64,000 nucleotides of DNA, from the NCBI GenBank assembly GCA_947630625.1, contig CANRIL010000005.1, forward strand, positions 6,205 to 70,204, in the 5' to 3' direction. Under the pieces are notes generated by a model that worked only from the letters and a program-made list of their open reading frames with translations, was not told the origin of the DNA and did no database searches. A program made the position numbers and the translations under genes. The stretch is from an uncultured Clostridia bacterium. GTDB taxonomy: Bacteria; Bacillota; Clostridia; Oscillospirales; CAG-272. This document shows, piece by piece, positions 11,760 to 64,000 of this stretch (the first letter of the stretch is position 1; every line of letters begins with the position of its first letter).

Positions 11760-12614
11760 TCACCGTCCGCCCTCGCCGGCAATGAACAGAACGCCGAGCG
11801 TGTTCGGTCCGCAGTGGCTCGATATGACGCCGCCCGCGTGCGTTTCGAGTATCTCGTCGAATATGCCGAGCGCCTTGAGCGTTTCCTTCGTTTTTTCAAC
11901 GATGTCATGCGCGTCCTCCCTCATCGTGTGCGTGACGAAGACGCGGCGCGTTTCCGCCGTTTTCAGCTCCGGCAGAAGGTCGGCAACATAATTCTCGACG
12001 ACTCGTCCGATTTTCCCGCGGTACTTTTTGTCAACGTCCATTTTGCCGCCGGAAACCACGATCTTCGGCTTGAGCGAGAGCAGATTCGCGGCGAGCGCCG
12101 TCAGCGGGGAGCACCTGCCGCCGCGCTGAAGATACGTCAGCGTGTCTATGACAAAGCTTGCCCGAACGCGGGGGTTCACCTCGTCAAGAGCCTCGGAAAT
12201 TTCGTCAAACGACGCGCCCGCGGACACCATATCCGCGGCGTAGAGGATCAAAAGCCCTATCCCGGTCGACAGATTGCGCGAATCCACAACGCGGCAGCGG
12301 CGGCAACCCGCCTCCTTCGCCGCGATTCGCATCACGTTATTCGACGTGCTCATCTCGCTCGAAATGCTGAACGCGATTATTTCATCGTCCTTGTATTTCC
12401 CGAACAGCTCCGCCGCGTCCTCGAGCGACGGCGCAGCCGTTTTCGGCGTCTTTCCGACGCTGTCCGCCCACTCGAAGAGCTCCGCCTGCGTCAGCTCCCC
12501 GTCGCGGACGCTCCTGTCGTCGAGAAGGATGCCGAGCGGGAGGATATCTATATCGTATTTTTTAAGCAGCTCCGGCGAAAGGTCGCACGTGCTGTCCGCA
12601 ATTATCTTTATCAT
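11760..12614 (-). CDS. DegV-family fatty-acid-binding protein
   Basis: 284 aa. Typical N-terminus MIKIIADSTCDLSPELLKKYDIDILPL, and SSEMSTS / GGR motifs. Confidence 0.85.
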   Translation of the reverse strand: MIKIIADSTCDLSPELLKKYDIDILPLGILLDDRSVRDGELTQAELFEWADSVGKTPKTAAPSLEDAAELFGKYKDDEIIAFSISSEMSTSNNVMRIAAKEAGCRRCRVVDSRNLSTGIGLLILYAADMVSAGASFDEISEALDEVNPRVRASFVIDTLTYLQRGGRCSPLTALAANLLSLKPKIVVSGGKMDVDKKYRGKIGRVVENYVADLLPELKTAETRRVFVTHTMREDAHDIVEKTKETLKALGIFDEILETHAGGVISSHCGPNTLGVLFIAGEGGR

Positions 12615-50747: not shown

Positions 50748-51554
50748 ATGCTTAAGACAAATTCAATAGATTTCAACAAAAAGACCGGCTTCATATGCGA
50801 TATGGACGGCGTGATATATCACGGCAACAAGGTGCTGCCCGGCGTCGGGGACTTCATCGACTGGCTCCACTCCGAGAAAAAGGAATACCTCTTTTTGACG
50901 AACAACAGCGGCTACACGCCGCGCGAGCTGCATCAAAAGCTCGCGCGCATGGGGCTCGATGTGCCCGAGGAACGCTTCTACACGAGCGCGCTTGCAACGG
51001 CGGCGTTTTTAAAGGAGCAGTCCCCCGGCTGTTCCGTCTTCGTCATCGGCGAAGCCGGACTTCACAACGCGCTCTACGACGCGGGCATAACGATGAACGA
51101 CGTTGACCCCGATTATGTTGTCGTCGGCGAAGGTCATTCATATTCGCTCGACTCGCTGACGAAGGCAACGAATCTCGTGCTCGCCGGAGCCAAGCTGATC
51201 GGCGCGAACTCCGATCTAACGGGACCGATCGAAAACGGGATCGCCCCCGCCTGCCGCGCGCTTATAGCGCCGATAGAGATGGCGGCAGGGACGAAGGCAT
51301 ACTTCTGCGGCAAGCCGAACCCGCTCATGATGCGCACCGGGCTCCGCATGCTGAACTGCCACTCCGCCGACGCCGTCATGGTCGGCGACAGGATGGACAC
51401 CGACGTTATCTCCGGCATGGAGAGCGGCATGTCGACCGTTCTCGTCCTCTCCGGCGTCTCCACGCGCGACACGCTCCGTGAATACGCGTACCGCCCGACC
51501 GTCGTGCTTGACGGAGTCGGCGACATCGTTGCCGCCGCCCGCGGAGTGAAATAA
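50748..51554 (+). CDS. HAD-IIA family sugar-phosphate phosphatase (NagD-like)
   Basis: 268 aa. DMDGVIYHGNKVLPG, LFLTNNS, GKPNP, VGDRMDTDV. Confidence 0.85.
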   Translation: MLKTNSIDFNKKTGFICDMDGVIYHGNKVLPGVGDFIDWLHSEKKEYLFLTNNSGYTPRELHQKLARMGLDVPEERFYTSALATAAFLKEQSPGCSVFVIGEAGLHNALYDAGITMNDVDPDYVVVGEGHSYSLDSLTKATNLVLAGAKLIGANSDLTGPIENGIAPACRALIAPIEMAAGTKAYFCGKPNPLMMRTGLRMLNCHSADAVMVGDRMDTDVISGMESGMSTVLVLSGVSTRDTLREYAYRPTVVLDGVGDIVAAARGVK

Positions 51555-51586
51555 CGAACAGGTTATTGCAGGAATATCAAAATGTC

Positions 51587-51752
51587 GTCGGGCTCCCTAC
51601 GGAGCCAGTGGATTGAAATGACAATAAGTATAACGTTGTGCCGTCCCCAACGGTCGGGCTCCCCGCGGAGCCCGTGGATTGAAATCCCGCTAAATTGTCA
51701 ACGTAAATGCAAATATTTTGTCAGGCTCCCCACGGAGCCTGCGGATTAATTT
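51587..51752 (+). CRISPR. Orphan degenerate mini-CRISPR array (3 repeats, 2 spacers), repeat family related to the main array but in the opposite orientation
   Basis: R1 51587-51619 GTCGGGCTCCCTACGGAGCCAGTGGATTGAAAT. S1 51620-51652 (33 nt). R2 51653-51685 GTCGGGCTCCCCGCGGAGCCCGTGGATTGAAAT. S2 51686-51719 (34 nt). R3 51720-51752 GTCAGGCTCCCCACGGAGCCTGCGGATTAATTT. It starts 32 bp after the HAD gene stop, and there is no AT-rich leader. Confidence 0.8.
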
Positions 51753-51811: not shown

Positions 51812-51840
51812 TTGACATTTTGACGCGCGGTGCATATAAT
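51812..51840 (+). promoter_or_regulatory. Consensus sigma-70 promoter upstream of the YczE-like gene
   Basis: TTGACA (51812-51817), 17 nt, TATAAT (51835-51840). Confidence 0.65.
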
Positions 51841-51876: not shown

Positions 51877-52536
51877 ATGAAAACACGTGTGATAATGAGC
51901 TGTCTCGGAGTTTTGATAGGGGGTATAAGCGTCGGCATGTTCCGCACGGCGGCGCTCGGCGTCGACCCCTTTCAATCATTCATGAGCGGGCTCGACATCA
52001 TGTTTCCTATCGGATTCGGGACGCTGTACGTGATCGCAAACGCCGTCCTTTTGCTGTTTTCCCTCATATTCGACAGACACAAAATCGGGCTCGCCACGCT
52101 CATAAATCTGACCCTGCTCGGGTACGCCGCCGAGTATTCGCAGAAATTCTTCGAATTTATCCTCCCCGACCTGTCGCTCATCCCGTCGCTTCTGCTGCTC
52201 ATCATCGCCATCGTCGTGATGTGCTTCGGCTCAGCCATGTACTTCAACGCCGACCTCGGCGTCTCTACATATGACGCGATATCTCTGATCATATCCGAAA
52301 AACAGTCGCGCGTCAGCTTTAAGGTCTGCCGCGTGCTGTCTGATCTCTGCTGCGTCGCCGCCGGTGTGATACTGTGCCTTCTCGCCGGCTCGTCCTGGAG
52401 CGACATCGGAGCCTATGTCGGCATCGGCACGATCGTGACCGCGTTTTTTATGGGTCCTCTCATCAGTTTCTTTTCCGGTCTTCTTCCGTACGGCAAAAAA
52501 GAGGACGCGAAAAAAGCAGCCGCGGCAAAATCATAA
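51877..52536 (+). CDS. YczE/YitT-like small polytopic membrane protein
   Basis: GAGGA followed by ATG 51877. MKTRVIMSCLGVLIGGISVGMFRTAALGVDPFQSF... and about 5-6 TM helices. Family assignment is from memory of the N-terminal pattern. Confidence 0.55.
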   Translation: MKTRVIMSCLGVLIGGISVGMFRTAALGVDPFQSFMSGLDIMFPIGFGTLYVIANAVLLLFSLIFDRHKIGLATLINLTLLGYAAEYSQKFFEFILPDLSLIPSLLLLIIAIVVMCFGSAMYFNADLGVSTYDAISLIISEKQSRVSFKVCRVLSDLCCVAAGVILCLLAGSSWSDIGAYVGIGTIVTAFFMGPLISFFSGLLPYGKKEDAKKAAAAKS

Positions 52537-52613
52537 GCGGCAAGTATATAAAATCCCCCGCACTCGCGGCCGTGCATCTGCGCGCTTCGCCTGCATTGCG
52601 GGGCGTTTTTTTA

Positions 52614-52642
52614 TTGAGCTTTGAGACTTTTTGTGATATACT
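52614..52642 (+). promoter_or_regulatory. Dedicated promoter of the STAND NTPase gene
   Basis: TTGAGC (52614-52619), 17 nt, TATACT (52637-52642), with TGa immediately upstream (extended -10). It lies after a CCCCGCA...TGCGGGG hairpin plus T7 run (about 52556-52612) that ends the YczE-like transcript. A GAGAGGAG RBS precedes ATG 52682. Confidence 0.55.
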
Positions 52643-52681
52643 TGATTTATATAGGATCGCCCGCATGAGAGGAGAAGACGT

Positions 52682-55600
52682 ATGACGCCCTGGAATTCCG
52701 TTCTTGTATTTATCAGCAGCACGTTTCTCGACATGCACGCCGAGCGCGATCTGCTTGTGAAACGAGTATTTCCGTTTTTATCGCTGTGGTGCGAAAAGCG
52801 CCGCATAAAATTGACTGAAGTCGACCTGCGCTGGGGCATACGCGAGGAAGACTCGCAGGAAAACAACCGCGTCGTCAATGTATGTCTTGAAAATATAGAC
52901 CGCTGCCGTCCGCTGTTCCTCTGCTTTTACGGGCAGCGGCGCGGATGGGTTCCAACATTGTCGGACGTGCCTGATCCTGTGCTCAGGGCGTTCCCCGGAC
53001 TTGCGGATAATTTAAGGGAAGGGCGCTCTATCACGGAGCTCGAGATCATACACGCCATAAGCGGCGGCAAAGACTGCGACCCGTTCTTTTTCTTTCGCGA
53101 TCCCTCATTTCTCGACAGTATAGACGACGCGGCAGTCAAACGTGAGATATACGCCGGCAGCGAAGAAGACGAAGAAAAACAGCGAAGCTTTCGCGACTAT
53201 ATAAAAGCCCGCGTCAGGGGCGACAGTATTTTTTCATACACGGCAAGATGGGACAGAAGTCTTTGCACCCCGGAACTCAGAGCCAAAGCTCACCCTGGCG
53301 TCTCGCCGCAGCGGCTCTGCCGCGGCAGGCTGACCGACTTTATGGTCGGTGAAAGACGGCTCGAGGACGTTGTCACAGATGTACTGAAAGCCGCAATTCT
53401 GCGCCTTTTCCCTGATCGCGCCGAGCCGGTCACCTCCGGCAGCCGCTATGAACGGGAAGCGGACGCTCAGGAGCGGTTTGTTATGTCCCGTGCCTTCGAA
53501 TACGTTCCGGGCGGCGGGGCTGAGGATATACTGTTTAACGATTATATCGGTCGCGAGGACAGCGCATGCCCGTTTGTTATTGCGGCTCCGTACGGCACGG
53601 GGAAAAGCGCGTTTCTCGCGGAGATGGTGCGCTGCCTGCGCGAACGAAGCGACTGCACGGTAATATACCGCTTCATCGGCGTCAACGGAGGCTGCATCGA
53701 ACACGGACTTGTCACGAGCCTCATTCACGAGCTGACCGAGAAGGGACTTATCGACAAAAAAATGCTACTGTCGGATGAAAACGCGAACTTTGTGAGTTTT
53801 CCGACGCTTCTTAAAAATGCAGCATCTGCGGCAGGAAAGCTTATCCTCGTTCTTGACGGTTTGGATCAGCTTGGTCTTCCCGTAAATATGCTCGACATCC
53901 CGTTTGAACGTATCGACAGCACACTTAAAATCGTGTTAAGCTTCTCAACGGAATCGACCGGAGCCCCAGAACTTATTACGCGGATGCAAATGCGCGATAT
54001 TCCCGTGATCGGGCTTGTAAATGACAAGCCCCGCCTTCGCATAATGGCGGAAAGTTATCTTTCACGGTACCTGAAGGCGCTGAGTCCGAACATGCTCGAT
54101 GAAATTGTCAGTAATTGTCCGGACTTCAACCCGCTCTTTGAAAAGATCGTTCTGTCTGAGCTTCGCGTTTTCGGCTCGCATGACGAGTTGTCGGAAGAAA
54201 TCAACAAATACAAGGGCAAATCCGTCGTAGAGTCGTTCGGACAGATGATATCGAGGATGGAGAACGATATCACTTATTCGCTCCCCGCGCTCGGAAGCTC
54301 AGTTCCGATCTTCCTCGGACTGCTCGCATGTTCAATAAACGGACTTTCGCTCCGCGAACTTTGCGACACTGCCATGGTGGAGCTCAAATCCGACAAAGAA
54401 TACCCAATGTCTTTGATCGAGGACGCCGCATCCGTTCTGCTCGCCGGTGTGCGAGACTTTGTCGCGCTCGACGGCGAACGCTACATGATCAGATATGAAT
54501 CACTTTCAAAAGCGATATCCGTCAAATACGGATCGGGCATGCTGAAACACAAGTTAGCTCTCGCTTTTTATTTTCTTTGCCGCTATAAGGCGATCCTCGG
54601 CAGCACTGACAGCGGCGACCCGGAGGAAAGAAAGCTCGTTTTGTCCGAGCTCCCTGATTATTTGTGGCGCAGCCTTCAGCTTGACGGGCTTGACATGCTG
54701 CTTCGCAGCTACGAATTTATTCGCGCGAAGGTAAAATACTGCGGCATATACGAGACATTGTCGGACTTCAGCCACACAAATGATCCGGACGCGCTCGAAA
54801 TAAAACGTATACTGCTGACGATTGCGGCTGACATTCCTGCGGAGGGGCAATTTGACGAAGCTTTATTTGCAGGTCAGCTGATAGGAAGGCTCGACTCACG
54901 CAAGTACGGGAAGCTCCGGGCATCGATGAAAAAAGCCGTAAACGTCAAGTGGTCATCTCCGAGCGGAAAAGCGTTCCTGTCGGCAGGCATAGTGTGGAGC
55001 CGCGTGCTTCCGCAAGACTGCGCTGTTTGCTGCATATCCTGCCTTGACGAACGCGTCAATATCCTTTGTCAGAGTACCTCGGGATTTGAATTCTTTCAGC
55101 TGAATATAAAGACGGGTGAGATCCGCTCCCGCCTTGTCGGGGATCAGGCTCAAAAAACACAGCTTAAGAAGTGGAAAGAGGTTAAGCACCCGGAAGTGAT
55201 CCGGACGGGGTATGTAAAACAAATCAAGCGGCAGGGAGATCATGTAAGCTGCCGCGGCAAAAGCATGATGAGCCTTTATGACAACTTACTCGGCTACTAC
55301 GCCCGCCCAGATCTTTGCTGCGCATGCAACGGCGATAATTATTTCATCCTGCGTGACGGTGTGCTTCACATATACAAAAGGACGGGTGCGCTCGCGGAAC
55401 GGCGCAAAGTCGCAGACGGCGCCGCGGAAATTTTTGCCTCCTCGGACGGCGTCGCGCTGCTGCATGAAAACAGTCTGCTAGAATTATACAAAATAAGCTT
55501 CGGCTCTGTCAGCGGCGTGCACACAAAACTTTTCGGCAAAGATCATCGGATCCGCGGTGTTCTTGACCATTGCTTTATTCTCTTTTCCACCGACGAAAAA

Positions 55601-56851
55601 CGCCTTGTATATATTGATATCGACGGCAATGAAGTCGAAAAGCGCCCGGCGTTTTTGGAAACTCACGTCTTTTCAGGCAGCGTTTTGTTCTCTGACGTTT
55701 ATGCGGTGGAAAAGAAAGGCCATCTTACGACAGTGTACGAGCTTGAAACAGGCAGGGAACTCTTAACGACGGACGCGGTATCTAACGCCGATATGATCAG
55801 CCTGACCGCTGATGGTCACTTAGTCGCCGCAGTCGGAATGCGCATCATAGCGTCCGACATCTCCGGCGAAAGCATATATGATCCGCCCTCCCGAAGCTTG
55901 CCTGTCTATGACATCTGCATTTCAAAACGCGGTCTTTTCGCCGTTGACAATCACGATATATATAATGTGCGTGCGCTGCCGGACGGCAGCAGGCTTGATG
56001 ACGGCGTCGCTGTCAGTCATATAAAAAATGACGGCGAGCTTGACAGGCTTCTGCGCCTCGCAGATGTCCGTGCGGCGCAGCCCTTCGGAGACGACGGCAC
56101 ATTTCTGGCGCTTACGGACGAGTTGACCGCATTTTGCATCGACGGCTCCGAGGTTACTCGCAAAACAACGCTGCACGTAACGGATCATTCGGTCAGCCAT
56201 TTCGCAGTACTCGGCAGCTGCGTCGCCGTCGTCTCGAAAGAGCATGTGCATATATTTGACCTCGCCGCCTTTAAAAATTATTACAGGGATCAACTCATTT
56301 ATGAGCCGGACAGCAAGTATATTGTCAAAATTCCTATCGGATTCAGACCGAAGCATGTTGTCGGAAACGGGCAAGACTTTGTTCTTTTTGTCAGTCACGA
56401 CGGAGAATATAAGCTGCTTTTTTCGCAGCGTACCGGCAAGGGCACGTCCGTCAAAATGTCAGGCACGGGCACGTTCGGCCGCCTCGCTTTCGTATCGGCA
56501 TCAGGCGATATCGTCGCCTCAGTCAACAGCTCCGACGACAAACTGAAGCTTTTTCGTGCGGCAGACGGGAAGCTTTCAAAAATAAGCGAAATAACGCTGA
56601 CGCTCCGCAATAAAGAAGTGCCTGTCGCATGCGTATGCGGCACACTCAGGAACAGCGATGACATTCTTGTGCTGTGCGCTTCCTGCACGACCGGTTCAAC
56701 ACGTGTCATCCGCGTTTTCTCAGACGGAAGCGGCGAGGCATCAGTATTTCACTCGGACAGGCAATTCAGCACGATGGAAGCGTTCGGAGCACACACCGGA
56801 AAGGTGTTTTTGCGCGGCGCCGACAGGCTCGGAGCCGTAATATCGGTTTAA
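52682..56851 (+). CDS. STAND NTPase: N-terminal DUF4062-like domain, NACHT-type P-loop module, helical region, C-terminal beta-propeller-like repeat region (NLR-like architecture)
   Basis: 1389 aa. aa 6-90 VLVFISSTFLDMHAERDLLVKRVFPFL...VDLRWGI...CRPLFLCFYGQRRGW. Walker A PFVIAAPYGTGKSAFLAEM (aa 298-316, about nt 53573-53629). Walker B KLILVLDGLDQL (aa 386-397). The last about 630 aa are rich in short beta-strand / G-D turn repeats (DGVALLHENSLLELY, DGHLVAAVGMRIIASD, DGEYKLLF, SGDIVASVNSSDDKLKLF). Confidence 0.8.
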   Translation: MTPWNSVLVFISSTFLDMHAERDLLVKRVFPFLSLWCEKRRIKLTEVDLRWGIREEDSQENNRVVNVCLENIDRCRPLFLCFYGQRRGWVPTLSDVPDPVLRAFPGLADNLREGRSITELEIIHAISGGKDCDPFFFFRDPSFLDSIDDAAVKREIYAGSEEDEEKQRSFRDYIKARVRGDSIFSYTARWDRSLCTPELRAKAHPGVSPQRLCRGRLTDFMVGERRLEDVVTDVLKAAILRLFPDRAEPVTSGSRYEREADAQERFVMSRAFEYVPGGGAEDILFNDYIGREDSACPFVIAAPYGTGKSAFLAEMVRCLRERSDCTVIYRFIGVNGGCIEHGLVTSLIHELTEKGLIDKKMLLSDENANFVSFPTLLKNAASAAGKLILVLDGLDQLGLPVNMLDIPFERIDSTLKIVLSFSTESTGAPELITRMQMRDIPVIGLVNDKPRLRIMAESYLSRYLKALSPNMLDEIVSNCPDFNPLFEKIVLSELRVFGSHDELSEEINKYKGKSVVESFGQMISRMENDITYSLPALGSSVPIFLGLLACSINGLSLRELCDTAMVELKSDKEYPMSLIEDAASVLLAGVRDFVALDGERYMIRYESLSKAISVKYGSGMLKHKLALAFYFLCRYKAILGSTDSGDPEERKLVLSELPDYLWRSLQLDGLDMLLRSYEFIRAKVKYCGIYETLSDFSHTNDPDALEIKRILLTIAADIPAEGQFDEALFAGQLIGRLDSRKYGKLRASMKKAVNVKWSSPSGKAFLSAGIVWSRVLPQDCAVCCISCLDERVNILCQSTSGFEFFQLNIKTGEIRSRLVGDQAQKTQLKKWKEVKHPEVIRTGYVKQIKRQGDHVSCRGKSMMSLYDNLLGYYARPDLCCACNGDNYFILRDGVLHIYKRTGALAERRKVADGAAEIFASSDGVALLHENSLLELYKISFGSVSGVHTKLFGKDHRIRGVLDHCFILFSTDEKRLVYIDIDGNEVEKRPAFLETHVFSGSVLFSDVYAVEKKGHLTTVYELETGRELLTTDAVSNADMISLTADGHLVAAVGMRIIASDISGESIYDPPSRSLPVYDICISKRGLFAVDNHDIYNVRALPDGSRLDDGVAVSHIKNDGELDRLLRLADVRAAQPFGDDGTFLALTDELTAFCIDGSEVTRKTTLHVTDHSVSHFAVLGSCVAVVSKEHVHIFDLAAFKNYYRDQLIYEPDSKYIVKIPIGFRPKHVVGNGQDFVLFVSHDGEYKLLFSQRTGKGTSVKMSGTGTFGRLAFVSASGDIVASVNSSDDKLKLFRAADGKLSKISEITLTLRNKEVPVACVCGTLRNSDDILVLCASCTTGSTRVIRVFSDGSGEASVFHSDRQFSTMEAFGAHTGKVFLRGADRLGAVISV

Positions 56852-56910
56852 ACCGGTTAATCGTTAAAACTCGTCTCATATACGGTATATTATTGTCGGA
56901 GCATACATTT

Positions 56911-58304
56911 ATGGAAGACATAAAAAAATCACAACTGTTTGAAAATACCCCCATCCCGAAGGCGGTCATGACGCTTGCTATACCAACTATCATGAGCTCG
57001 CTCGTGATGGTGCTCTACAACCTCGCGGACACATATTTTGTCGGCATGCTCAATGACCCCATACAGAATTCGGCGGTGACGCTTGCCGCGCCCGTGCTTC
57101 TCGCGTTCAACGCGGTGAACAACCTCTTCGGCGTCGGCGCGTCAAGCATGATGAGCCGCGCCCTCGGCAGAAAGGATTACGAAACAGTCAGATGCAGCTC
57201 CGCCATCGGGTTTTACTGCGCGCTTTTTTCCGCTGCACTGTTCTCGGTTTCATTCGCCTCATTTGCCCCGGCGGGCTCCGCGTCCTCGGCGCGGACTCCT
57301 CGACTGAGGTGGCGACGGCGCAGTATCTGCACTGGACTGTCACCTTCGGCGCCATCCCGTCGATCCTCAACGTCGTCCTCGCGTATCTTGTCCGCTCCGA
57401 AGGCTCGTCGCTGAACGCCAGCATCGGCACCATGAGCGGCTGCGTCCTCAACATGATCCTCGACCCGATCTTCATCCTTCCGGGCGGGCTCGGCATGGGC
57501 GCTGCCGGAGCCGGACTCGCGACGTTCATCTCAAACTGTGCCGCGTGCGTCTATTTCTTCATTCTTTTGGCGGTGAAACGGGGAAAAACGTACGTCTCGA
57601 TAAGTCCGCTGCGCATAAGGTTCAGGCGCGACATTATTTTCGGCATCTGCGCCGTCGGAATCCCCGCCTCGATTCAAAATCTTCTGAATGTCACGGGCAT
57701 GACGGTGCTCAACAACTTTACGTCCGCCTTCGGCTCGGACGCTGTCGCGGCGATGGGCATAGCGCAGAAGGTCAACATGGTCCCCGTGCAGATCGCCCTT
57801 GGCTTTTCGCAGGGCATAATGCCGCTTGTCGGCTACAATTACGCCTCCGGCAGCATAGACAGGATGAAGCGCACCATCACCTTCGCCGCGAAAATAATAA
57901 TATCGTTTATGGTCGCGGTTTCGATCGGATATTACATATTTGCGGGGTCGCTTTCGGCGCTCTTCATGGAAAATCCCGCGGTCGTCGCATACGGGACGAA
58001 ATTTCTGCGCGGGCTCTGCCTCGCGATGCCGTTTCTTTGCATGGATTTTCTCGGCGTCGGCGTGTTCCAGTCGTGCGGCCTTGGTAAAAACGCGCTTTTG
58101 TTCGCGATTTTGCGGAAAATAGTGCTTGAAATACCCGCGCTCTGCATCCTGAACGCGCTCTTCCCGCTCTACGGGCTCGCATACGCGCAGTTCTCCGCCG
58201 AGCTCGTCCTCTCCGCCGCCGCCGTGCTCGTGCTTTACCGCCTCATAAAAAAGCTTGAGTCGGAGCACTCAAAAACGGAAACTGCCGATTCTGAGATATC
58301 ATAA
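56911..58304 (+). pseudogene. MATE-family efflux transporter disrupted by a frameshift in a T6 run
   Basis: The N-terminal part (frame of ORF 56674..57414, from ATG 56911) reads MEDIKKSQLFENTPIPKAVMTLAIPTIMSSLVMVLYNLADTYFVGML.... Beyond 57224-57229 (TTTTTT) the MATE sequence continues in the frame of ORF 57192..58304 (...VLGFIRLICPGGLRVLGADSSTEVATAQYLHWTVTFGAIPSIL...). One extra T would restore a single roughly 464-aa ORF. Confidence 0.8.
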
Positions 58305-59458: not shown

Positions 59459-59520
59459 TGGACACACTAATGTACGTGTGGTATAATATCATCACGGATT
59501 TGCTGCGCAAATCCCAAAAG
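59459..59520 (+). promoter_or_regulatory. Promoter/palindrome module 1 (P1 plus inverted repeat)
   Basis: TGGACA (59459-59464), 17 nt, TGgTATAAT (59479-59487). Ten nt downstream is the perfect palindrome GATTTGC-tgc-GCAAATC (59497-59513), followed by CCAAAAG. Confidence 0.5.
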
Positions 59521-59610
59521 CGCGCAAGCGCACTTTTGCTGCGGCTTCGCCGCAGACTCGACATTGACGGCCTCGCAAAAATGCCCTTGCAAGCAAGCAT
59601 TTTTGCTTCG

Positions 59611-59653
59611 TGGTATAATGTCTTCACAGATTTGCCATTCAAATCCCAAAAAG
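59611..59653 (+). promoter_or_regulatory. Promoter/palindrome module 2 (P2 plus inverted repeat), a diverged copy of module 1 located 132 bp downstream
   Basis: TGgTATAAT (59611-59619), then GATTTG-ccatt-CAAATC (59629-59645), followed by CCAAAAAG. It aligns base for base with 59479-59520 (TGGTATAATaTCaTCACgGATTTGC...CAAATCCCAAAAG). Confidence 0.5.
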
Positions 59654-60654: not shown

Positions 60655-61018
60655 ACGGCTGTCCGTTCCCGCGCCGCCGGTTGCTTCGGATCAAATTTTT
60701 AAGAGGTCGGAAACTTATGAGGACAGTATCAATTAAAAATATCCGCGATAGTCGAATCTTAACGGTTTGCGGATTAAATCCTAATACGGGAATATGTCCG
60801 ATGTTTGTTTTTTGCCGCAGTGGGTAAACACGTCGTCGAGTAAAAATTGACGCGTCAATTCAGCCGTATCATTCGGCGCGGACGCCAAATTTTCACGGCA
60901 AATCCGCGGGCATTTCAATCCATGCCGGGGTTGGACTGAAATATTACGTATTACGTTACGTTTACGGTTACACAAAATAGAGTTCCCCGTCGGGAACCCG
61001 ACTTCATATTATCCCGCA

Positions 61019-63542
61019 AAGGGGGGTCATGGGCTCCGCGTGGAGCCTGACGCGTCAGGTTGTTTGCTTTCGTCGAATCGCGTTGATTTCAATCCCCAGA
61101 CTCCGCGTGGAGCCTGACGACCCCGATAAGCAGATATACACAGTTAATTTTGCATTTCAATCCCCAGGCTCCGCGTGGAGCCTGACATAATATCACAGTG
61201 TATAAGCACTTACAAGATCATTTCAATCCCCAGGCTCCGCGTGGAGCCTGACGACAGTGGTACATATACGGCGGACGCGGAGACGGTCATTTCAATCCCC
61301 AGGCTCCGCGTGGAGCCTGACTGTTTATGACGGTCGAGCCGCAGCCGGACGAATCATTTCAATCCCCAGGCTCCGCGTGGAGCCTGACGCGCATGCAGCG
61401 CGGAAGCGGAGAGGGCATCAAATTTCAATCCCCAGGCTCCGCGTGGAGCCTGACGGTTGACAACGGCGCAATTGCGGTTGTCATTATTATTTCAATCCCC
61501 AGGCTCCGCGTGGAGCCTGACTGCGCCACGAAAGAAAAAACAAGCTCATGCAACAGATTTCAATCCCCAGGCTCCGCGTGGAGCCTGACCGCCTGCGTGT
61601 GCGGTGTTGCAGCTTTAAGTGTGATTTCAATCCCCAGGCTCCGCGTGGAGCCTGACGCCGTCTTCCGTCTCCGCATTAGTGGGTACGGATACATTTCAAT
61701 CCCCAGGCTCCGCGTGGAGCCTGACTACAAGCTTTACATTGTCATTTTCTACGACCGGACATTTCAATCCCCAGGCTCCGCGTGGAGCCTGACCAATAGC
61801 TGGTATTCGCGGAGTAGCAGCCGCAGGTATTTCAATCCCCAGGCTCCGCGTGGAGCCTGACTTAATCGCGCAAGCTCGGCACAAGCTGTCTTTGCATTTC
61901 AATCCCCAGGCTCCGCGTGGAGCCTGACCCCGACGCGCGCATATTCAGCCGTGCGCGGTTGCATTTCAATCCCCAGGCTCCGCGTGGAGCCTGACTTCTT
62001 CTCTATCTCGGCGCAGAACCGACGGGGCATTTCAATCCCCAGGCTCCGCGTGGAGCCTGACTATTCATCGCCTCCTTATCTGCATTTCTTTTCTCATTTC
62101 AATCCCCAGGCTCCGCGTGGAGCCTGACCGCAAAGGGGGCGGTCTGCCGTGCTGTGAGCGCATTTCAATCCCCAGGCTCCGCGTGGAGCCTGACAATGCG
62201 TGGACGCAAGCGCAACAGAAGCCTTGCATTTCAATCCCCAGGCTCCGCGTGGAGCCTGACCCGCAAAGGGGGCGGTCTGCCGTGCTGTGAGCGCATTTCA
62301 ATCCCCAGGCTCCGCGTGGAGCCTGACCAAGCTTCCTGTCGTATCAATCGAGGATGGAGAATTTCAATCCCCAGGCTCCGCGTGGAGCCTGACGGATGGG
62401 AGACGGTAGAAACTACTCCAACGCGCGATTTCAATCCCCAGGCTCCGCGTGGAGCCTGACCTGAATCGTCGATTCCGAAAGAGCCTAAAAACGTAATTTC
62501 AATCCCCAGGCTCCGCGTGGAGCCTGACATCAAGTACGGCATACCCTTCCGGCGCGATAACAAGCATTTCAATCCCCAGGCTCCGCGTGGAGCCTGACTG
62601 TATCCGCCTGTGTATCCGCCGACCCGTTCCGAATTTCAATCCCCAGGCTCCGCGTGGAGCCTGACACGCCACAAGCGGCATGACCTACGAAGACTGGAAT
62701 TTCAATCCCCAGGCTCCGCGTGGAGCCTGACGCAGTTGGATCGTCGTCATCGTCGCGCGAGCGGTGATTTCAATCCCCAGGCTCCGCGTGGAGCCTGACA
62801 TGCGTGGGATGGCGCAAAGCGGCGGAAGTTATCGAATTTCAATCCCCAGGCTCCGCGTGGAGCCTGACCTTTCAACAGATCAAGGCACTCTTCGCCGTCA
62901 AAATTTCAATCCCCAGGCTCCGCGTGGAGCCTGACGAGCATCTCCGTCGCTATTCGATTTCCTCCCAAGTATTTCAATCCCCAGGCTCCGCGTGGAGCCT
63001 GACGGCGCGAGCCGGTCGGTCGCAAGACACTAAAATTTTATTTCAATCCCCAGGCTCCGCGTGGAGCCTGACTCATCGTACTTTTTTGCATATATGGCGC
63101 TGTCAATTTCAATCCCCAGGCTCCGCGTGGAGCCTGACTTCAAGCCGCTGCACGTCGGCGGCGCGGCAACTATTTCAATCCCCAGGCTCCGCGTGGAGCC
63201 TGACGACACAGGCGCTTGCGGACACACTAGCGGAAAGCATTTCAATCCCCAGGCTCCGCGTGGAGCCTGACATCCATCGGCTGAGCTTGACTCCGGACAT
63301 ATGGTATTTCAATCCCCAGGCTCCGCGTGGAGCCTGACTACTCGGTGGTCGGCTCACGGCTGACCCCGAGTTATTTCAATCCCCAGGCTCCGCGTGGAGC
63401 CTGACGTGCGCCCCCTTGCGTGTGATTGATAACAGTGTAACATATTTCAATCCCCAGGCTCCGCGTGGAGCCTGACACGGGGCGCAATACCTTTATTTCT
63501 TGGCTCTTTATTTCAATCCCCAGGCTCCGCGGGGAGCCCGAC
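61019..63542 (-). CRISPR. CRISPR array, 38 repeats / 37 spacers, type I-C-like repeat, transcribed on the minus strand from the cas2-proximal leader
   Basis: 33-nt repeat. The + strand reads ATTTCAATCCCCAGGCTCCGCGTGGAGCCTGAC and the minus strand GTCAGGCTCCACGCGGAGCCTGGGGATTGAAAT (7-bp stem AGGCTCC/GGAGCCT, 4-nt loop, ATTGAAAT tail as in I-C repeats). I located every repeat start by hand: 61019 (degenerate), 61086, 61154, 61220, 61289, 61356, 61422, 61489, 61557, 61624, 61693, 61761, 61829, 61896, 61963, 62029, 62096, 62162, 62228, 62295, 62361, 62428, 62496, 62566, 62633, 62699, 62767, 62836, 62903, 62971, 63040, 63106, 63172, 63239, 63306, 63373, 63444, 63510. Spacers are 33-38 nt. The subtype call rests on the repeat and cas2 only. 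Confidence 0.95.
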
Positions 63543-63709: not shown

Positions 63710-64000
63710 CTAAACTATAAGCGGATCTGTCACATCGTATCCCTCTTTTGACCCGATGTGCTCGACCTTCCCCTTATAATTATTTCCAAGATAATAGAAG
63801 CGAAGGCTGTCCTTTTCCTTGTCTATGATGTCTTCGAGTATCGCCTTTACCTGCCGGCATTTCGCGGCGTCAAGATTGCACTCGAACACCGAATTCTGCA
63901 CGCGCTGGCCGTAATTCAAACACTCCTTCGCAACGCGGCGCAGCCGCTTTTTTCCCGCCGCTGTCTCAGTATTTACGTCATAAGTGATGATAACAAGCAT
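63710..64000 (-). CDS. cas2: CRISPR-associated endoribonuclease Cas2
   Basis: 96 aa. MLVIITYDVNTETAAGKKRLRRVAKECLNYGQRVQNSVFECNLD...SLRFYYLG is the canonical Cas2 pattern. The start codon sits exactly at the window edge (63998-64000). The rest of the cas operon would lie beyond 64000. Confidence 0.9.
   Translation of the reverse strand: MLVIITYDVNTETAAGKKRLRRVAKECLNYGQRVQNSVFECNLDAAKCRQVKAILEDIIDKEKDSLRFYYLGNNYKGKVEHIGSKEGYDVTDPLIV

Follow-up and report, generated by a model that had tools for sequence, protein, structure and literature searches.

An orphan, leaderless mini-CRISPR array between a HAD hydrolase gene and a DUF6198 gene, very probably an eroding remnant of a type I-C array

Results

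The mini-array and its flanking genes

In the window, i.e., the whole stretch of 64,000 nucleotides analyzed here, reading of the sequence and a repeat finder revealed a mini-CRISPR array of three 33-nt type I-C repeats and two spacers at positions 51587-51752 on the plus strand, located between a hydrolase gene of the HAD superfamily and a gene for a DUF6198 membrane protein. This locus as well as the main CRISPR array of the window comprise the following features:

50748-51554, plus strand: HAD-superfamily hydrolase gene (268 aa; Pfam Hydrolase_6 and Hydrolase_like), directly upstream of the mini-array
51555-51586, plus strand: stretch from the HAD stop codon to R1 (32 nt, 37.5% GC), not a CRISPR leader
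51587-51619, plus strand: repeat R1, GTCGGGCTCCCTACGGAGCCAGTGGATTGAAAT; 6-bp stem intact, canonical handle TGGATTGAAAT
51620-51652, plus strand: spacer S1, 33 nt; single copy in the window
51653-51685, plus strand: repeat R2, GTCGGGCTCCCCGCGGAGCCCGTGGATTGAAAT; canonical handle; a G4-C21 pair lengthens the stem, where the main repeat has A-T
51686-51719, plus strand: spacer S2, 34 nt, 32% GC; single copy in the window
51720-51752, plus strand: terminal repeat R3, GTCAGGCTCCCCACGGAGCCTGCGGATTAATTT; hairpin intact, degenerate 3' tail GGATTAATTT
51812-51840, plus strand: sigma-70 consensus promoter TTGACA-17-TATAAT, outside the array and driving the DUF6198 gene; kept in relatives with and without the array
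51877-52536, plus strand: DUF6198/YitT-like membrane-protein gene, downstream of the mini-array
61032-63542, minus strand: main type I-C CRISPR array; 37 complete copies of the repeat GTCAGGCTCCACGCGGAGCCTGGGGATTGAAAT are followed by a truncated terminal copy, and 36 spacers with lengths of 33-38 nt lie between the full repeats
63710-64000, minus strand: cas2 (Pfam CRISPR_Cas2), last gene of the I-C operon

Compared to the main-array repeat, R1, R2 and R3 show mismatches at 6, 4 and 6 positions, respectively, and R1 and R2 differ from each other at 3 positions. With a start-to-start repeat spacing of 66 and 67 nt and spacer lengths inside the main-array range, this is in line with the first-pass annotation, which had recognized three repeats of the main-array family flanking spacers of 33 and 34 nt. 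A search covering either strand of the window and a further 10 kb (148 kb in total) gave no other 33-mer with up to 10 mismatches to the repeat, so that a chance origin of the mini-array repeats is excluded; by our estimate, about 1e-6 chance sites would be expected. A search against Rfam did not assign any family to the mini-array locus.

The GGCTCC/GGAGCC stem is kept in all three repeats, each of which folds into the expected hairpin. Retention of stem and tail had already been noted for R1 and R2, both bearing the handle TGGATTGAAAT, and can be extended to R3 with regard to the stem. Moreover, the 3' ...GGATTGAAAT handle and the internal GC hairpin are found in the mini-array in the same orientation as in cas-adjacent arrays. 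The changes versus the main repeat affect loop positions 11-13, the closing pair at positions 4/21, which is A-T in the main repeat and R3, G-C in R2 (altered on both sides, with pairing preserved) and G/A in R1, and also the first handle nucleotide at position 23, while the last part of the tail is changed in R3 only. In the window strain, all of these changes spare the 6-bp stem, and those in R1 and R2 additionally spare handle positions 2-11. Such a stem- and handle-sparing mutation pattern could be a sign of residual selection for processing rather than of pure decay, counter to neutral erosion. The decay of the R3 handle, correctly stated in the first-pass annotation and also found in the sister lineage described below, is commonly seen in terminal repeats, and the affected tail belongs to neither of the mature crRNAs. 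In type I-C crRNAs, which are produced by Cas5d, a handle of 11 nt is located at the 5' end and a hairpin at the 3' end. Judged by sequence, both crRNA units are structurally complete in the window strain, with 5' handles from R1 and R2 and 3' hairpins from R2 and R3.

The mini-array and the main array are separated by a gap of about 9.3 kb and lie on opposite strands, and R1 starts at 51587, 32 bp after the HAD stop codon ending at 51554; inverted orientation, distance and start had thus been given correctly before. Likewise, the previously stated lack of a leader and of an adjacent cas gene holds true. The nearest cas gene is cas2 at a distance of about 12 kb, and the cas3 promoter is about 20 kb away, which marks the mini-array as orphan, not as non-CRISPR. 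The GTGC..TTTGCT leader-repeat junction, which the main array has in common with the independent L098 array (see below), is missing from the 32 nt preceding R1, and canonical spacer acquisition is therefore not expected at this site. Flanking genes are chromosomal metabolic genes in an order that is syntenic in relatives (GH2 - serine dehydratase - HAD - DUF6198), and phage or plasmid genes are not among them. A consensus scan, which does not prove absence, did not predict any sigma-70-like promoter between the HAD gene and R1, nor was an intrinsic terminator predicted in this stretch or after R3. The HAD gene is the only plausible source of mini-array transcription, via read-through.

The main array and the cas operon

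On the minus strand, the main array extends from 63542 to about 61032, reading GTC...GAAAT in this direction. Within the window, cas2 is the only cas gene, the remainder of the operon being located past the window end; the full I-C operon cas3-cas5d-csd1(cas8c)-cas7-cas4-cas1-cas2 was recovered from the overlapping contigs L001 and L002. An independent metagenome array adjacent to cas1-cas2 (L098/L099) has the near-identical repeat GTCGGGCTCCTCACGGAGCCTGTGGATTGAAAT, with the same handle TGGATTGAAAT as in R1 and R2. At the sequence level, this array confirms the predicted transcribed orientation, GTC...GAAAT downstream of cas2, and the mini-array repeat variants fall, by the same comparison, inside the range seen for working I-C repeats.

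Several irregularities of the main array may be recorded here. The leader-proximal repeat GTCGGGCTCCCCGCGGAGCCTGGGGATTGAAAT (63510-63542, minus strand) deviates at positions 4 and 11 from the remaining 36 repeats, of which 35 are identical to one another, and its first 20 nt are the same as the first 20 nt of R2 of the mini-array. Either no acquisition has taken place since these changes arose or the repeat has been converted by recombination with an R2-type repeat. Spacers 19 (62261-62294, minus strand) and 21 (62129-62161, minus strand) have the same sequence, GCGCTCACAGCACGGCAGACCGCCCCCTTTGCG, with one additional G in spacer 19, and only one other spacer lies between the two copies. Past the truncated last repeat (61051-61032), two decayed repeat-like units 66 nt apart are present at 60912-61051 on the minus strand, GTCGGGTTCCCGACGGGGAACTCTATTTTGTG at about 61002 and GTCCAACCCCGGCATGGATTGAAAT at about 60936, the latter having the T-type handle of the mini-array. 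These units beyond the trailer are what is left of the main array's oldest end. In the Logan contigs L001 and L003, the main array seemingly comprises only three repeats with spacers 1 and 36. This is not a difference between strains but results from collapse during assembly, by which spacers 1 and 36 were joined; array lengths from assemblies collapsed in this way through identical repeats should not be trusted.

Three states of the mini-array repeats recur elsewhere, namely G4 and T23 in the L098 family, G4 and C11 in the leader-proximal main repeat and T23 in the vestigial trailer-end repeat. Being shared in this way, G4, C11 and T23 are probably ancestral.

The locus in related genomes

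For comparison, a sister lineage represented by six samples (L100, L101 and L105-L108) was available, in which the DUF6198 protein is 98-99% identical to that of the window, coding DNA has diverged by 3-5% and 16 of 153 fourfold sites (10.5%) differ. At exactly the same site, these samples possess an array of only two repeats with a single 38-nt spacer. The first repeat, R1' (GTCGGGCGCCCTGCAGAGCCCGTGGATTGAAAT), shows the derived changes T8G and G15A, both breaking the stem. The spacer, ATTCTCGGCAACTTAAACGGGT[A/G]GCGGACGAATACATA, is unrelated to S1 and S2 and polymorphic at positions 3 (within the seed), 11 and 23, and the terminal repeat, GTCAGGCTCCCCGCGGAGCCTGGGG[A/G]TTAATTT, ends with the same degenerate tail as R3. 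Because both terminal repeats share it, this tail is ancestral and older than the lineage split, and identical insertion site and tail together establish that the mini-array locus is orthologous in both lineages. The array architecture is invariant across the six samples.

Between window and sister lineage, the repeats differ at 6 of 66 positions, not distinguishable from the 16 of 153 found for fourfold sites (Fisher p = 1). Hence, the mini-array repeats diverge at the neutral rate. Of the 32 nt separating the HAD gene from R1, 7 differ. Altogether, the mini-array behaves as unconstrained DNA that is losing or exchanging units, unlike a conserved guide. Five contigs of the window lineage are identical over the locus and, consequently, uninformative in this respect.

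The entirely different spacer content of the two lineages might also be explained by a second array that is still acquiring spacers, so that the differences would represent new acquisitions and not differential loss. The intact cas1-cas2 pair would allow for this, and the 3 differences between R1 and R2 are compatible with a repeat duplication about as old as the lineage split. On the other hand, the leader and the conserved leader-repeat junction motif are missing, neither the six sister samples nor the five window-lineage contigs vary in architecture, and the mini-array repeats are heterogeneous, as opposed to the 35-36 identical repeats of the main array. We therefore regard ongoing acquisition as improbable.

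More distant relatives show the state of the intergenic region without an array. In L093 (GCA_947624995.1) and L095 (GCA_947632285.1), with 79% DUF6198 identity and the order GH2 - serine dehydratase - HAD - DUF6198, the genes for HAD hydrolase and DUF6198 protein are separated by 127 bp containing a terminator hairpin and a promoter. As the array occupies the HAD terminator site of these relatives and a terminator is not predicted in the window, HAD transcription probably reads through the array. A comparison of the locus in related genomes, as suggested in the first-pass annotation, thus revealed an eroded array with different content in the sister lineage and a terminator in place of the array in L093 and L095, supporting a fossil or old array. 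Neither synteny nor an array was found at 80 HAD-gene loci from GTDB species. A repeat-like match in L050 (26/33) was dismissed, as it is located inside a coding region.

With a strong terminator hairpin at this site in relatives lacking the array and none in the window, the three stable GC hairpins supplied by the array could be thought of as a repeat-derived structural element serving the flanking genes, for example, as stabilizer or attenuator at the HAD 3' end replacing the lost terminator, with no CRISPR function. However, a U-tract is missing behind each of the hairpins and no terminator was detected by the scan, the sister lineage has the first of the hairpins disrupted, and the repeats diverge neutrally, so that such a role has to be considered very unlikely.

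With regard to the cas genes, a Cas1 variant with 98% amino acid identity shows a fourfold divergence of 8.6%, i.e., the same depth as the sister lineage, and stems from a sample of a sequencing project shared with four of the six sister samples. It is therefore probable that both lineages possess the I-C system alongside the array, a conclusion drawn by inference, as the contigs are too short for linking the two. Cluster sizes of Cas proteins were unreliable as a test for cas genes in the sister lineage and were abandoned in favor of the Cas1-variant divergence.

Some differences were observed further downstream of the mini-array. A 4.27-kb segment (52611-56881) with a gene for a 1389-aa protein (52682-56851) having an N-terminal DUF4062 domain represents an insertion/deletion polymorphism, being present in the window and L108 and absent in L100, L105 and L107, where the DUF6198 gene is directly followed by the MatE gene. 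For this 1389-aa protein, neither a PADLOC match nor a further Pfam domain was obtained. The MatE gene itself has a 1-nt deletion at 57274 compared with the sister lineage (GGCGG-GCTCC versus GGCGGCGCTCC), resulting in two overlapping ORFs (56674-57414 and 57192-58304); the split reflects either loss of the gene's function as a pseudogene or a mistake in the assembly. At 59478-59651, two 42-nt direct repeats (GTGGTATAAT...CAAATCCCAAAA) occur, which are 83% identical and 132 nt apart, and a match to the Rfam Clostridiales-1 RNA at 59508-59634 on the minus strand stays below threshold (21.5 bits versus a gathering score of 48, E = 0.59).

Spacer targets and a candidate CreR-like element upstream of cas3

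Type I-C systems use the PAM TTC, with TTT, CTC and TCC being weaker (PMC5602111). Both strands of 74 kb, comprising the window and the whole cas operon, were scanned for seed matches, counting 5' runs and ignoring every sixth position. For the 36 main-array spacers, the best runs are 8-10 nt, with the exception of spacers 19 and 21, which match each other over 14 nt. The best run of S1, 12 nt at 12032 on the minus strand, is just above this range and was rejected as a target because it is preceded by GTT as PAM and lies inside a 284-aa ORF (11760-12614). S2 reached 10 nt with no PAM, and the reverse complements of both spacers 9-10 nt. Consequently, seed-plus-PAM matches of S1 and S2 are absent from the 74 kb including the whole cas operon, and this also applies to the seed-only matches next to TTC that had been envisaged in the first-pass annotation. 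When extending the seed-plus-PAM and full-length partial-match scans to about 738 kb of fetched loci in addition to the 74 kb, nothing above the null given by the 36 main-array spacers was obtained for S1, S2, their reverse complements or the sister spacer.

Blastn searches with the mini-array against 50,697 phage and 72,556 plasmid records gave chance-level matches only, and in five exact scans of IMG/VR no match was found for the 18-20-nt halves of S1 and S2 or for nucleotides 1-20 of the sister spacer. These negative results carry little weight, as 22-mers of the main-array spacers 1 and 19 used as controls were likewise not matched in IMG/VR and the whole main array also gave only chance-level phage matches. 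The phage and plasmid collections do not cover the mobile elements of this organism.

A candidate CreR-like element was encountered in the intergenic region upstream of cas3, at L002 2103-2290, about 7.7-7.9 kb past the right end of the window and on the plus strand of the latter. It consists of the following parts:

L002 2249-2221, opposite cas3: predicted promoter TTGACT-17-TATAAT
L002 2206-2177, opposite cas3: psi-repeat GTCATCGGCTCCACCGATGTGGATTGAAAT
L002 2176-2144, opposite cas3: psi-spacer, 33 nt
L002 2144-2103, opposite cas3: terminator hairpin, 18 bp

When aligned to positions 2287-2272, nucleotides 1-16 of the psi-spacer show a single mismatch, located at spacer position 12 (15 of 16 matching); TTT precedes the match, and this site is 5 bp upstream of the -35 element of the best cas3 promoter candidate (2295-2323). 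In the 74-kb scan, this corresponds to a seed score of 16 with a TTT PAM versus 8-10 for main-array spacers. A phage copy of the psi-repeat plus psi-spacer was not found in IMG/VR. By these features, the element appears to have all hallmarks of CreR and is a candidate cas-regulating RNA, and it provides a positive control, from the same genome, for the criterion of seed plus PAM. In type I-C systems, CreR-like elements have been noted from sequence inspection only.

Against this background, the proposal of the first-pass annotation that the mini-array itself is a CreA-like regulator can be evaluated. One or both spacers would then direct Cascade by partial seed pairing beside a PAM, bringing about repression of either a toxin gene or a cas promoter. 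Short length combined with a degenerate distal repeat is indeed typical of the architecture of regulatory mini-arrays (10.1101/2023.03.03.530964), S2 is AT-rich like promoter DNA, and the sister lineage retains what is needed for one crRNA unit, namely a handle in R1' and a hairpin in the terminal repeat. However, the spacers are wholly different at only about 10% neutral divergence and the sister spacer is polymorphic within its seed. In addition, the best seeds of S1 (with GTT, in an ORF) and S2 fall short of the 16 with TTT established for the psi-spacer, an own promoter is not predicted, and the position is remote from both cas2 and the cas3 promoter. Moreover, the neighboring gene encodes a conserved DUF6198 membrane protein and not a small toxin, the HAD-DUF6198 pair being adjacent also where the array is absent, and the operon already has the separate CreR-like element. 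Hence, a regulatory role of this kind is highly unlikely and the proposal was not sustained. Still less probable appears a variant in which crRNAs from HAD read-through would be loaded into Cascade and one of them, that of S2 for instance, would target a promoter elsewhere on the chromosome, beyond the 74 kb inspected. Such a function would couple a housekeeping transcript to Cascade regulation far from the cas locus, and it is disfavored because the spacers are not conserved in the sister lineage.

Discussion

Taken together, the mini-array in the HAD-DUF6198 intergenic region is very probably an old, orphan, leaderless and eroding remnant of a type I-C array, which may still yield crRNAs by read-through. 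The view of the first-pass annotation that it represents a fossil or a second, old array is corroborated by the orthologous sister locus with different spacers and a stem-broken R1' and by the neutral divergence of the repeats. Regarding its origin, the remnant is either a second array or a piece displaced from the main array at an earlier stage of the latter. It predates the split of the window and sister lineages, now separated by about 10% neutral divergence, and has since been eroded by loss or turnover of repeat-spacer units in combination with point mutations.

Since the mini-array follows a housekeeping gene at a site where relatives have a terminator, its transcription would need read-through. 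From a read-through transcript, Cas5d could release two crRNAs, as hairpins and handles are intact in the window strain. Inferred from the sequence, these would be ordinary crRNAs for S1 and S2, predicted to begin with UGGAUUGAAAU in their mature form, and processing by the host's own Cas5d and use by its Cascade, as already assumed in the first-pass annotation, is plausible. Like any others, both crRNAs would guide the I-C Cascade against mobile elements.

Orphan mini-arrays and array remnants are common, and the mini-array described here, behaving like neutral DNA, matters little when considered alone. Its value is rather that of a clean and dated example of remnant erosion in two lineages with a neutral-site divergence of about 10%, illustrating unit loss, stem-breaking mutations and a degenerate terminal repeat that has become frozen. 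It also demonstrates that the description as a mini-array with a degenerate distal repeat is insufficient for calling a regulator.

In the CreTA systems of Li et al. from 2021, cr-like regulatory RNAs reportedly derive from degenerated mini-CRISPRs. With CreR and CreA elements, the mini-array shares the small size, the degenerate distal repeat and the derivation from the host CRISPR repeat. In contrast to these, it has two full-length spacers, lacks a partial target with PAM as well as a position at the cas operon, and its spacers are not conserved. Criteria for regulatory mini-arrays include a 5'-seed-anchored match of at least 10 nt, a cognate PAM, a cas or cargo promoter as target, a position at the cas locus and conservation (10.1101/2023.03.03.530964; 10.1101/2023.03.10.532045). 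Virus- and plasmid-borne mini-arrays and solitary repeat units comprise 1-3 repeats without cas genes, and two-spacer arrays of this kind have been described for type I-C (10.1101/2024.10.29.618823; Shmakov et al., 10.1101/2023.03.03.530964). While the array in the window is similar in repeat number and in the absence of cas genes, it differs from the mobile ones by its chromosomal, syntenic context, which is free of genes from phages or plasmids, and by lacking a match to the cas promoter.

The closest correspondence is seen with orphan, cas-distal arrays and array remnants. Like these, the mini-array has repeats of the host family at regular spacing, unique spacers of normal length and a decayed last repeat, is accompanied by neither an adjacent cas gene nor a leader, and shows unit loss and drift between close lineages. 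Nothing essential sets it apart from such arrays, its particular features being that it is very short, with only two spacers, and directly follows a housekeeping gene.
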